Assembly: GCF_006345805.1 (NCBI RefSeq)
Contig: NC_043012.1
Coordinates: 5,890,001 to 5,954,000 of the forward strand
Origin: Octopus sinensis
Taxonomy: Eukaryota
Length of the DNA stretch: 64,000 nt
Direction of reading: 5' to 3'
In this document: in pieces, positions 21,041-62,116 of the stretch
Numbering within the stretch: position 1 is the stretch's first letter
Layout of the letters: every line of letters starts with the position of its first letter
The notes under the pieces: generated by a model
Told to the model about the DNA's origin: nothing
Seen by the model: the letters and a program-made list of their open reading frames with translations, nothing else
Database searches by the model: none
Made by a program: the position numbers and the translations under genes

Positions 21041-21425
21041 TCTTTAATTCTTTTACTTGTTTCAGTCATTTGACTGCAGCCATGCTGGAGCACTGCCTTT
21101 AGTCGAACAAATTGACCCCAGGACTTATTCTTTGTAAGCCTAGTAATTATTCTATCGGCCTTTTGTGTCGAACCGTTAAGTTACAGGAATGTAAACACAC
21201 CAATATTGGCTGTCAAGTAATGGTGGGGGGACAAACACAGGCACAAATACATATACACATTCACATACATCTATATATGTGATGGGCTTCTTTCAGTTTC
21301 TGTCTCACAGGGCTTTTGTCAGCCCAAGGCTATTGTAGAAGACACTTGCCCATAGTGCCATGCAGTGGAACTGAACCTGGAACCATGTGGTTGGGAAGCA
21401 AGCTTCTTACCACAACCACTCCTAC
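21041..21425 (-). mobile_element. SINE family A (inverted partner of 20524-20890)
   Basis: Full reverse-complement copy. Confidence 0.88.
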
Positions 21426-21444
21426 ACTTATATAGTTTATATCC

Positions 21445-21896
21445 AGTTAGAATAAAAAAAAAAGGAAATTGAGATAATAAAGTTAATAATTGTTTATTAT
21501 TAACAAATTGGTCATCTTCACTTTTTACAACCGTTTCAATTAATACCCAATAATCAAATTACAAATTTGTACATTAAGTTTGCATTTTTATGAGATGAGA
21601 GCATAATTTCATCAGAGAAAAAAAAAAAGATGTCCACTGGAATGTTATATGTGGACCTGTCAATTCATATCAGCAGACTGAATTGACAGGTCCACATATA
21701 ACATTCCAGTGGACATCTTTTTTTTTCCTCTGAATTATGCTCTCATCTCATAAAAATGCAAACTTAATGTACAAATTTGTAATTTGATTATTGGGTATTA
21801 ATTGAAACAGCTGTAAAAAGTGAAGATGACCAATTTGTTAATAATAAACAATTATTAACTTTATTATCTCAATTTCCTTTTTTTTCTTTTCTAACT
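21445..21896. mobile_element. Fold-back palindrome 1 with outward-facing hammerhead motifs
   Basis: Near-identical arms 21445-21667 and 21679-21896, 11-nt loop TATCAGCAGAC; TA-rich flanks. Confidence 0.95.
21521..21620 (-). ncRNA. Type I hammerhead motif with extended stem II (left arm)
   Basis: CUGAUGA-AAUUAUGCUC...GGGUAUUAAUU-GAAAC-GGUU-GUA-AAAAG; the right-arm copy (21725-21820, +) has palindromic ACAGCUGU but a deleted core. Confidence 0.7.
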
Positions 21897-21904
21897 TTTA
21901 ACTG

Positions 21905-21948
<44 letters not shown>

Positions 21949-21961
21949 GTATAAAAAATAT

Positions 21962-24897: not shown

Positions 24898-25097
24898 AAT
24901 GTGACCGCGTGTGTACCGTTGGCGATTTTTTTCCCTCTGTCTTCCCTTCTCTGGATCTTTCCTTTTCCTATGTTTCTGACGAAGAGCTCCGCTCGAAACG
25001 CTAAACCCTCCTTCTTCCCTTCCTTCCTGAGTGTCCAATAATACTTTATTTGTTCCACATCCTCGCGTTGTTGTGTTTTCATGTTTGGATTAACTAT
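24898..25097 (+). mobile_element. ~200-bp mini-element with a minimal hammerhead motif (24972-25006)
   Basis: GUUU-CUGACGA-A-GAGC UCC GCUC-GAAAC-GCU-AAAC; inserted in (TA)n; same layout as 22921-23116. Confidence 0.7.
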
Positions 25098-31777: not shown

Positions 31778-32620
31778 GGCGTAGGAGTGGCTGTGTGGTA
31801 AGTAGTTTGCTTACCAACCACACGGTTCCGGGTTCAGTCCCATTGCATGGCATCTTGGGCAAGTGTCTTCTACTACAGCCTCGTGACGACCAAAGCTTTG
31901 TGAGTGGATTTGGTAGACGGAAACTGAAAGAAGCCCGTCGTATATATATATATATATATGTTGTATGTCTTGACAACCGATGCTGGTGTGTTTACGTCCC
32001 TGTAACTTAGCGGTTCGGCAAAATAGACTGATAGAATAAGTACTAGGCTTACAAAGAATAAGTCCTGGGGTCGATTTGCTCGACTAAAGGCGGTGCTCCA
32101 GCATGGCCGCAGGCAAATGACTGAAACAAGTAAAAGAATATGCATATATGTGTGTGTATTCTTTTATGTTTCAGCCTTGTGGCTGCGGCCATGCTGGGGC
32201 AGAATATATATATATATATATATATACTTGTTTGCATCAATAGACACACACATGGATCTTTTATCTTTTACTTGTTTCAGTCATCATGCTGGGGTATATC
32301 ACCTTGAATTTTAGTCGAACGAATCGTCTTCCAGTGTTTTTTTTTAAATTTTAAACCTGGTACTTAGAGTAGCGTTTTCTTTTGCCGAACCGCTAAGTTA
32401 CGAGGACGTAAATACATCACCACCGCTTGTCAAACAGTGGTGGGGACAGACACAGACATAAAGATACGGCGGGCTTCTTTCAGTTTCCGTCTACCAAATC
32501 TATTCGCAAAGCTTTTGTCGGCCCGAAGCTATAGTAGAAAATACTTGCCCAAGGTGCCACTCAAAGGGACCGAACCCGGAACCATGTGTTTGGCAAACTA
32601 ACTTCTTACCACACAGCCAC
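31778..32620. mobile_element. Inverted SINE A pair (+31778-32138, -32260-32620)
   Basis: Two near-complete copies facing each other. Confidence 0.88.
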
Positions 32621-34228: not shown

Positions 34229-35854
34229 TTACTCGCTCTTTTACTCTAATAAGCTTTTTACTTTTTTTTCTGTGACCCATTCTCTTACTTCACCTCTTCC
34301 TCTTCACGTCACAGCCCGTTCTTGTTCCTTGAATTTTAGTCCTTCTCCTTCACTTTAGCAGTCTTTCTCACCATTTTATTTTCTGCTCTCTCTCTTTCTC
34401 TCACACACACACACTCCTTCAATTTAGTTCTCTTTCAAATATTTTCCTTAGTTTTTTTTTCTCTTACAAATACTTCAATTTAGTTACCACTTTCACAAAT
34501 TTTCTTCAGTTTCTCTCTCTGTCCCTCACACACACACACACATGCATTACCCATTTTCTCTCACACACACACTTTCCCTCAGTTTTGCGTTATATTTTCT
34601 TACTACAACTGTTCCATCTACATTTTCTCTCCTTTCGTTACTGCCCCCTCTTTTGCTCGCTTCTCTCTTTCACTATGCTATTTTCAATATTATACCCATT
34701 TCTTTTCTTTCTTCACTTCATCGTCTTCTCTTACAGACACGCACGCTCTCTCTCTCTCTTTCCCCCTCTCTCCTCTCCTCTCTCTCTCTCTCTGCCTTAA
34801 TTTAATTTCCTTCCACTTGTTTCGGTTTTTGACACATTTCCGCTTCGTCTCTCATCTCTCTCTCTCTCTTTCTCTGTGGAAATGTCTTACGTGACCCAAA
34901 TTGACCTGAACGAATGACCAAATTGTTCTGTAGCGAATAACACGACTTCTGCAGACGATGTATGTGATGTATTTGATTTGATTTGAATAAATATCTCTAT
35001 CTAGAAACTTCTAAACATACTCATCGCTTTCAGTATACATACAAGTCACTATCGCTCTACATTTCGGTGAGTAGTTCGTAACCACATGGTTCCACAAGTG
35101 TCTTCTGCTATCGGCCCGGGCTGACCAAAGTCTTGTGAGTGGATTTAGTTGGTGGTTACTGAAAGAAATCCGTCGTGTGTGTGTGTGTTACTACTATTGT
35201 TTGAGACAACCGGTGTTGCTTTGTTTTTGTCTCAGCAGTCTGGCGTCAGAAACCGAGAGAATAAGTACCAGTTTTTCTTTTCTTTTTTTTCGTTTTGTTT
35301 CTTCTTTCTAATAACTGGTGTCGATTCGTTCGACTGAAAATCCATCAAAGCGGCGGCTCAGCATAGCCGCAGTCCAATGACTGAAACAAGTAAAAGATAA
35401 AAAAATAAAAGATAGTGAGGTGGGGGGGAGGTAACAGAAATGACTAACGTAGATATGTGAGCATATCAAACGTACTGCAACAAACTTCTGACTAAAGATG
35501 TAACAGCTGTGACCACACTTTATCTCTAGGTGTGTGTGTGTTTGTGTGTGTAACTTATGTAGTAGATGTGTAAACGGCTAATTCAGCTGTTCCTCCGTAG
35601 ACTGAAAAAGTCGTGAACAGTATTTACGGATTTTCGAATCTTATTGAGTTCTCATCAGAAATGTCTTCATCAATTTGATTAATCACAGAAAAACAAGCAA
35701 CCACTCTTAATATATGCTCAATAATTCCAGTAGCCACAGAGAACTATCCTCCTTATTTAGTCTGAAAGGAAAGCGGATATGTGCTGCAGCAAACTTTTGA
35801 TTAAACTCTATCGGTTTGACTGATTTTCGACCTGGCTTTCGGTGTTTGGCTGTC

Positions 35855-35898
35855 TGTTGCTGATGATCCGAAACACGGTGAAATCACGTGATACAATA
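35855..35898 (+). ncRNA. Type I hammerhead ribozyme, nearly canonical
   Basis: UGUUG-CUGAUGA-UCCG AAACA CGGU-GAAA-UCACGUGA-UA-CAAUA; palindromic stem III, stem I UGUUG/CAAUA. Confidence 0.75.
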
Positions 35899-36703: not shown

Positions 36704-37285
36704 AGCGGCGAGCTGGTAGAATCGTTAGGATGCTGCACAAATATATTAGCAGTATCGGCCCCTTTGCCTTTCCCTTGGATAACACTAGTGGCGTGGAGAG
36801 GGGAGGTCGGTATGCATGGGCGACTGCTGGTCTTCCATAAACAACCTTGCTCGGACTTGTACCTCGGAGGGTAACTTTCTAGGTGCAATCCCACGGTCAG
36901 TCATGACCAAAGGGGTCTCAATTTCTTCCGGTTCTTTACATTCTGGATTCAAATTCCACGGAGGTCGACTTTGCCTTTCATCCTTTTGAGATCGATAAAA
37001 TAAGTACTAGTTGAACACTGCAGCCGATGTTATTGACTAGTCCCCTCTCACAAAATTTCAGGCCTTGAGACTTTAGTAGAAAAGCAGCGAGCTGGCAGAA
37101 TCGACAGCGGCCATTTTTTTTCTTCGACTTTACATTTTGAGTTGAAATTCCGCCATGGTTGACTCTGCCTTTCGTCTTTTTAGAGGAGTCGATAAAATGA
37201 GTACCAGTTGAGCACTGGGGTCCACAAAATCGACTACCCCCTCCCCTTCCGAGAAACAATTTCCAGGCCTCGTCCCTATGGTGAA
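36704..37285 (+). mobile_element. Two SINE B copies; the first is interrupted by a family D 3' segment (36751-36917)
   Basis: B head, then the D tail GTATCGGCCCCTTTGCC...GGGGTCTC, then the B core resumes. Confidence 0.82.
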
Positions 37286-38510: not shown

Positions 38511-38844
38511 GAGGAGGAGACCCCCTTCAGTCATGAATGACCATGGGATTGCACCTAGAAAGTTACCCTCCTAGACACAAGTCCGGGCAAGGTTGTTTAT
38601 GGAAGACCAGCAGTCACCCATGCATAGCAGCCTCCCCTCTCCACACCACCAGTGTTATCCAAGGGAAAGGCAAAGGGGCCGATACAGCTTGGCACCAGTG
38701 ATGTCGCAACTCATTTCTACAGCTGAGTAAACTGGAGCAACGTGAAATAAAGTGTCTTGCTCAAGAACAGAACATGCAGCCCAGTCCGTGAATCGAACTC
38801 AGAACCTCACGATCGTAAGCTCGACGCTCTAACCATTGAGCCAT
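38511..38844 (-). mobile_element. tRNA-derived CORE-like SINE family D with 7-bp TSD
   Basis: Head TGGCTCAATGGTTAGAGCGTCG, GAGTTCGATTC; TSD agcgaat at 38504-38510 and 38845-38851. Confidence 0.88.
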
Positions 38845-52561: not shown

Positions 52562-52939
52562 ACATAACATGGCAGTCCTGGTCTAGGACGAACGTTGCTG
52601 TAATTTAGCCCCAGGAGACATTGTCTCCAGCTGGCTATATGACACTATCTGTGTCCTTATTTTCAAACAAGGGAATCTAGCACCCCCACTCAGCTCAAAA
52701 CAAAATCTGTGTATTGCAATTTCCATGTTATTTCCCTTCATCAGCACAGAATAATTGTTCTGCTGAAGAGAAATAACCCAGAAATCGCGATACACAGATA
52801 TTCTTTTGAGCTGAGTGGGGGTGCTAGGTTCCCTTGTTCCAAAATATAAGGATACAGATTGTGTTGTATAGCCAGCTGGAGACGATTTCTCCTGGGGCTA
52901 AATTATAGCAGCATTCGTCCTAGGACTGCCATGTAATGT
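52562..52939. mobile_element. Fold-back palindrome 4 with outward-facing hammerheads at the axis
   Basis: Arms meet at AGAA(T)AATTGTTCT (axis 52754/52755); - 52708-52748 UGUG-CUGAUGA-AGGG AAAUAA CAUG-GAAA UUGCAA UA-CACA; + 52761-52796 CUGAAGAG AAAUAA CCCA-GAAA UCGCGA UA-CACA. Confidence 0.92.
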
Positions 52940-61318: not shown

Positions 61319-62116
61319 GATATATACACGTATTTGGAAAACAGGCGAGGGTTGACAACAGGAAGAACATCCGGCCGTAAAATCCTGCCTCTGATAAAGA
61401 TATGAAGAGAGGGTTGTGTTGGAAATTCTGAAAATATTACCGAATCCAGCATACACCTGACGAAAGCAAGAGGGTACCATACCCCAAGCTTTGTTTATTA
61501 AAACAAAGACGAAGGCACTAATCTAAATACATAAGTGTATTTCTATTTTATAAAAGCTAATATAAATAAAGGCTGGTTGGTTAGTCGGTTGGTTTTTCAA
61601 GTCACGCTTTACACCGTAGAGAGAGAGAGAGGGGTAATGGGAAGGTGCAGAGACTGTTAAGAGGTGCATGATGAGCGCACATAGTAGGCTTGACGGCAGG
61701 CAATGAATAAAAAGCACGCCCTCCCCTTCATACACATGCCACAGTAAGAGAGAGTCATAGTCTGAGGAGGAGAAGAATAAGGGACAGAGGAATAGATATC
61801 TTTCTCTTGAAAATTAGTATTGTTTTTTATCATTTTGTATAAACTCAAAAAAGTTGGAAAAAAGTTAAATTACAACAATTATGTTTGCCACATGTCAAAA
61901 GTATACTTCGAAGTTCCCCGTCAAAATGACCCGTCACTTCAGTATTGACTCTTCTCCATCTCGAAAGTCGTGCCTGTATATATTTGTATATGAATATGTA
62001 TATTTGTTTATGCGTACACTTCTGTGTGTGTCTTCGTGCGAATGCTCGTGTAGTCTACTGTGTATATATGTATGTATGTGTATATAATTATTGAATGGCA
62101 CTTCTACATGCAAGAT

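Follow-up and report, generated by a model that had tools for sequence, protein, structure and literature searches.

How does an animal genome come to carry an almost perfect palindrome with a hammerhead ribozyme motif in its arms, and does the motif still cut? We examined this for a fold-back in Octopus sinensis (RefSeq assembly GCF_006345805.1, contig NC_043012.1, positions 5,890,001–5,954,000), a stretch of 64,000 nt of non-coding, repeat-rich animal DNA that we call the window. Arms at 21445–21667 and 21679–21896 align around an 11-nt loop (21668–21678) and are about 96% alike; self-BLAST of the palindrome gives 94.3% over 458 columns (E 0.0), and the longest perfect stem measures 48 bp, against 8–9 bp in five of five shuffles. 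Arm alignment, self-BLAST and shuffles thus confirm the original prediction of a palindrome of about 450 bp with near-identical arms and an 11-nt loop. Nine events separate the arms, namely six substitutions and indels of 1, 4 and 7 nt. The element itself extends past the arm ends first claimed, to about 21434 on the left and 21910 on the right, and the locus comprises the following features (X numbers are codes of sequencing runs):

21270–21433, plus strand: host repeat whose TA tail is the insertion site, with 23 other matches in the window at 74–84%.
21434–21678, minus strand: the longer, left-hand copy of the repeat, which reads from the centre outward.
21482–21504, minus strand: predicted hairpin of 9 bp around a 5-nt loop, lying downstream of where the cut is predicted and mirrored in the right arm.
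21521–21620, minus strand: type I hammerhead motif of the left arm, predicted to be cut after 21526.
21668–21678, no strand: 11-nt loop, family sequence and not a foreign spacer (in run X1 the family reaches a depth of 1958 at 21669).
21679–21910, plus strand: right copy, inverted, with a 5′ end 11 nt shorter, merging into (TA)n.
21725–21820, plus strand: mirror hammerhead relic of the right arm, with CUGA at 21730–21733 followed by a 4-nt deletion.
21905–21950, no strand: (TA)n microsatellite of the right flank, which hides any target-site duplication.

The left copy, whose limits come from family contigs over 21426–21679 and from a loose-end consensus that matches the window out to 21434, includes the loop. 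Compared with the right copy it is longer by this loop at the 5′ end and, at the 3′ end, by about 4 nt, and the right copy has a 7-nt duplication close to its 3′ end. The loop is flanked by a 5-bp stem; one X23 contig matches five letters beyond the loop, hinting that the stem may be native to the repeat family.

The palindrome had been flagged as a possible chimeric artefact, and no contig among those listed spans the whole stretch. Part of it occurs in 20 of the 24 runs listed, only one of which holds more than half of its words. The arms, however, continue into different flanks and differ by the 4- and 7-nt indels, and depth changes at 21705–21709 in two runs fit a loop-spanning contig. X1 carries this copy's letter at 21669 at a depth of 21, which can still be seen at 21705 but has gone by 21709, and in X2 depth falls by 4.8, from 13.3 to 8.5, over 21705–21709. 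Because a loop-spanning 31-mer contig necessarily ends at 21708, we infer from these depth columns that X1 and X2 both contain the fold-back centre. Signs of the centre are missing from X3 and X5; at the left junction X1 has a depth of 0 over 21416–21425 (with 76% of that run examined), and repeat masking hides the right junction. Given the arm indels, the distinct flanks and the X1 and X2 depths, we give an assembly or read chimera practically no chance.

Each arm is a member of a multi-copy repeat family. At 80% likeness on 21416–21712, X1 yields 636 contigs and X3 yields 441, figures from which the true copy number is not readable; up to 105 distinct family contigs meet at one site, and most of those in X1 (561 of 636) are 80–95% like the window. 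This evidence consists of short, depth-weighted contigs of coded runs rather than a copy-by-copy alignment, and summed depth is not a valid measure of copy number. With the minus strand as sense, the family spans from about 21434, its 3′ end, through the loop to about 21679, upstream of which at most 30 letters are readable in other copies. Exact family words returned no hits in metagenome, genome and viral contigs, and the family is undescribed in the literature searched on octopus hammerheads, long stem II insertions and Penelope loop II, with subscription papers and Repbase lying outside that search.

Other family copies form head-to-head pairs too, in which the 5′ end recurs and the second arm starts at varying points. 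Six of the nine joints listed are opposite-strand joints, three of which link 21679 to 21515, 21546 and 21632; in X23, a loose end leads from 21537 directly into the sense-strand core. Eight X1 contigs end in (TA)n. Loose ends further hint at two family ends about 17 nt apart; the arms at this locus differ by about 4 nt at the 3′ end.

The left arm holds a complete hammerhead core on the minus strand, in which CUGAUGA (21615–21609), GAAA (21537–21534), CGGUUG and GUA (21528–21526) provide the CUGANGA, GAAA and NUH elements in type I order. Stem II (21608–21599/21548–21538) has 10 pairs and one bulge and encloses a 48-nt loop II (21597–21550), and a self-complementary 6-mer, loop III at 21533–21528, stands for stem III. 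The core letters and the stem II pairing were found just as the original prediction described them. Stem I pairs at four of its first five positions and has a C–A mismatch at the second pair (21617/21524), a defect that is common to both arms and that the prediction did not mention. The motif is also an atypical variant, since its 10.1–11.1 pair is A–U instead of the usual G–C and no extra base follows A9; the G–C pair and the extra base are usual but not universal in the published set (PMC4209133).

In the right arm, the type I order is lost to a 4-nt deletion that takes U7, G8, A9 and the first base of stem II. The loop III there is a perfect CAGCUG (ACAGCUGU is present), so that both halves of the description of this arm, a palindromic stem III and a core short of 4 nt, were borne out. 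Predicted self-duplexes of loop III reach −4.7 kcal/mol on the left and −13.1 kcal/mol on the right. Of the hammerheads described for the two arms, only that of the left arm has a whole core. It had further been suggested that arm differences concentrate in the ribozyme core and stem III; three of the nine events do fall in these 19 positions, but the clustering is weak (binomial p about 0.03, post hoc). We rejected selection against the ribozyme as its cause, as the p value is post hoc and one of the three events is a CpG transition, which is present in 18–27% of family depth.

At the gathering score Rfam gave no hammerhead match, and relaxing E to 10 brought 21 matches, again without a hammerhead; the microRNA matches, far below their own thresholds, merely reflect the hairpin and were set aside. 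A hammerhead descriptor, fixed after the motif had been seen, finds two core positions in the window (the left-arm motif and one at 61762) and gave one hit in 40 shuffles; only the left-arm hit has a palindromic stem III. Loop II contains a perfect 12-nt palindrome (21560–21571) without any majority change in the family, but such a palindrome arises in 4.8% of 20000 shuffles and was not taken as significant.

Several other hammerhead-like sequences lie in the window. The second descriptor hit, at 61762–61815 (+), is purine-rich, with a 7-pair stem II and 40 nt between the core halves, and may be due to chance. A second head-to-head fold-back at 52562–52939, of an unrelated family and the same layout, has arms that are 84% alike, (GT)n on its right and, close to its centre, a degenerate minimal hammerhead in either arm; its stem III 6-mers differ between the arms, and both are palindromes. 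Outward-facing motifs at 35625–35658 (−) and 35860–35893 (+), about 200 bp apart, have no mutual similarity, and neither passed the descriptor. A single minimal-hammerhead-like motif at 24976–25003 (+) lacks stem III and has a stem II that is short and GC-rich.

Variation across the family bears on whether the ribozyme is real. No core position is changed among 40 of the 43 family difference rows. At 21524 the family majority restores the C–G second pair of stem I (94%, 93%, 100% and 97% of depth in four runs), and at 21547 it turns a U–G pair of stem II into U–A (98% in X1, 95% in X3), the window's letter being retained in one X23 contig. A change at 21598 adds an eleventh stem II pair in part of the family, one X23 contig is altered only at the free position 7, and loop III occurs in three family variants, all self-complementary (the majority variant by inspection). 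All stem-supporting changes are one-sided, and no two-sided compensatory change was seen; being one-sided and depth-weighted, they are supportive and do not amount to proof by covariation. Because the majority letters repair stems I and II, the family's ribozyme is, judged by its sequence, likely to be genuine. The hammerhead identity is thus supported by family variation, and the locus proves to be one copy of a repeat family and not a special structure.

The same observations bear on a MITE or fold-back DNA transposon, in which two terminal inverted repeats would enclose a chance hammerhead-like motif. At 450 bp, AT-rich and ORF-less, with long inverted repeats and a TA target, the locus resembles such an element. 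Inversion points, however, vary among copies, so that the structure is not constant, and the core is kept while family letters repair the stems; we consider this origin a remote prospect.

The motif has its closest parallels in the minimal type I hammerheads of metazoan Penelope-like elements (PLEs; PMC4209133), notably the Drosophila virilis-like variant and Hydra-clade motifs (PMC8557442 File S2). Shared features are a full core, a long stem II with a mid-stem bulge and a tiny self-complementary stem III; stem I is short, as in those motifs, where it has 4–5 bp, but in this copy it forms four of five pairs. Stem III of the form ACAG..CUGU-A occurs in five rows of File S2. The Hydra-1_oBim motif also has an A–U closing pair, but its sequence differs from that of this family (PMC8557442). 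Loop II, at 48 nt, exceeds the maximum of 34 nt in the one table compared, that of File S2 (PLE-X1_sMoe). Six probe words brought up no relative in the PMC8557442 supplement, the six places returned being in unrelated sequences. In a paper that counts Penelope families of Octopus vulgaris, the word hammerhead does not occur (PMC13282606).

The insertion site points the same way. The two copies stand head to head, 3′ ends outward, in a TA tract, and the predicted cut site lies 92 nt from the 3′ end. The host repeat at 21270–21433, which we take to be SINE-like, runs into the palindrome where several of its matches elsewhere in the window end in CCTATATATA. Penelope insertions are described as having an inverted 5′-truncated copy adjoining the 5′ end and a (TA)n target bias (PMC8557442), and inverted pLTRs are a standard feature in curation (PMC8969392). 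Like insertions of EN+ Penelope-like elements (PMC8557442; PMC3846280), the locus has head-to-head arms with 3′ ends outward and one arm shorter at its 5′ end, a (TA)n target without visible duplication and a hammerhead near the 3′ end. Unlike them, it has no ORF or direct pLTR, and in place of their typical one-sided extension of 30–40 nt it shows about 4 nt. A Pfam search of 51 of the 85 ORFs of at least 100 aa in the window found no RT or GIY-YIG domain and one sub-threshold match; the 34 ORFs outside the scan are mostly microsatellite or SINE frames, and such a coding frame is absent at the locus. The Penelope link is therefore one of anatomy: the locus appears to work like a Penelope insertion, and its membership is putative.

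Other repeats of the window are arranged differently. At 32094–32201, a small 80% inverted repeat is made of two ends of the common SINE-like repeat and is not a hammerhead fold-back. Inverted repeats of 173 nt at 36748–36919 and 38517–38689, 91% alike and 1.6 kb apart, have no other copy in the window and could represent DNA transposon ends. Identical copies about 1.4 kb apart (27779–27862/29197–29280 and 26717–26891/28122–28306) suggest a recent local tandem duplication or a duplication in the assembly.

We regard it as fairly probable that the two head-to-head copies in the TA tract arose in one Penelope-like reverse transcription event and that the locus is now a dead fossil. A Penelope-type endonuclease would nick the TA tract, and reverse transcriptase would start on the RNA about 90 nt behind the hammerhead cut and copy about 245 nt until it reached a preferred 5′ end near 21679. 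The second arm would come from the same template, either because the cDNA end folds back on the 5-bp stem flanking the loop or because the other DNA end serves as primer. Head-to-head palindromes have been interpreted as self-priming (PMC3846280), PAc, an Anolis Poseidon element, cuts and extends both strands in vitro (PMC11167929), and the origin of inverted ends in Penelope-like elements has been called open (PMC8557442).

PAc also offers a measure of distance, as reverse transcription starts 85–92 nt behind its hammerhead cut (calculated from +26 and +111–118) compared with 92 nt here, and its targets are likewise AT-rich; it differs in that its hammerhead overlaps the start of an ORF, whereas the family here is non-coding over the part visible (PMC11167929). 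As hammerhead cutting is unnecessary for PAc insertion (PMC11167929), a copy with a weak stem I could still be mobilised. Minimal hammerheads of metazoan PLEs cut weakly and in a dimer-dependent manner (PMC4209133), and the family motif would do likewise, as a dimer formed through its self-complementary loop III.

Metazoan non-LTR retrozymes, which are defined by tandem units (PMC7229834; bioRxiv 10.64898/2026.07.22.740005), raise another reading, in which the unit is half of a tandem, circular-RNA family and the locus its smallest two-armed insertion. The family resembles them in being short and non-coding with a type I hammerhead, and the length of about 245 nt, the want of an ORF and the recurring 5′ end would suit them; their derivation from, and movement by, Penelope elements has been proposed (bioRxiv 10.64898/2026.07.22.740005). 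No tandem unit is seen here, though, and the motif is minimal, not canonical. About 150 nt separate the 5′ end from the cut site, the window holds no tandem copy, and none of the nine joints listed is head-to-tail, although contigs cannot prove absence elsewhere. We hold the retrozyme reading to be very improbable.

Both arms depart from the X1 and X3 family majority at 16 identical sites, some of which, near indels, may be by-products of alignment; four of the mirrored sites are also listed in a second depth table. Over the same 223 nt, only five substitutions separate the arms, and independent decay would leave less than one shared departure. On sequence grounds, therefore, both arms derive from one sequence that was already about 7% off the majority, whereas the divergence of the arm pair is about 1–2% per arm. 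The palindrome had been called young, which holds for the pair and not for the sequence. Fossil A-to-I editing was rejected as a source of the shared changes, whose spectrum is mixed (3 A>G and 3 U>C among the 16, on the sense strand). One template about 7% off the majority would account for the 16 shared changes, and the nine arm differences would have come later.

Two other histories would give arms of this kind. In one, an insertion of the same Penelope-type origin is as old as the rest of the family, and conversion through a hairpin or cruciform has since preserved the likeness of its arms. The ratio of 16 shared departures to five inter-arm substitutions accords with this, 7% is a normal age for a copy when most family contigs are 80–95% like the window, and the window's letters are rare in X1 (2–8% of depth at 21547, 21555, 21524 and 21578). 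The arms of the fold-back at 52562–52939, which has the shorter loop, have nonetheless drifted to 84%, so homogenisation is not general in the window, and a single diverged template gives the same pattern with no extra step; we think conversion unlikely.

In the other, a replication template switch or a break-induced fold-back at the natural 5-bp stem turned an old single copy into a pair on the spot, the second arm forming without reverse transcription. This fits the changes common to both arms, the X23 contig whose five letters past the loop hint at a native stem, and X3, which has 0.32 of the words yet no contig with this copy's loop letter. Such copying would have had to stop at the element's 3′ end with no flank included, and other family copies have inverted junctions of their own; we judge it more doubtful still than conversion. 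A recently copied, diverged template is the preferred explanation over both.

As to cutting at this locus, a dimer of the two motifs within one transcript was rejected as impossible: they are on opposite strands, and any transcript contains only one of them. Read-through RNA of the locus is predicted to fold at −313 kcal/mol with the arms paired, and stem II, which has a pair probability of about 0.5 when the left copy folds by itself, is left with about 1e-60; the RNA would form one 220-bp hairpin with the motif buried. With a mismatch in stem I, a deleted core on the right and read-through RNA that folds into one long hairpin, this copy is predicted not to cut, and by these models the locus is likely a dead fossil. 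Such a long hairpin RNA, if transcribed, would be a substrate for editing or dicing. Two runs guessed to be RNA hold eight and five family contigs, none of them 95% like this copy, and no inference on its expression follows.

The palindrome is likely an ordinary footprint of a Penelope-type element, unusual only in its 48-nt loop II, which is itself a small extension of known variation. Paired motifs have precedents as well: dual minimal hammerheads 100–700 bp apart on opposite strands were reported in 2014 (PMC4209133), and Penelope-13_HM carries a hammerhead on both strands (PMC8557442 File S1/S2). Taken alone the locus matters little, as a further footprint of a known retroelement habit that is common in the genome.

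A bolder view, which we put forward as an outside possibility, sees the family as a non-coding element, 245 nt long, whose 5′ end is fixed and whose movement depends in trans on a Penelope-type enzyme. Its cDNA would self-prime on the native 5-bp stem into whole palindromes, the 48-nt loop II with its 12-nt palindrome would serve as a second dimerisation site, and decayed copies would be re-mobilised. If this were true, each palindrome would be a double record of one template molecule. Collected across the genome, short palindromes that share a 5′ end but vary in where the second arm starts could tell self-priming apart from priming at two ends. If a hammerhead whose loop II has 48 nt works, it would widen the search descriptors, which otherwise miss it.
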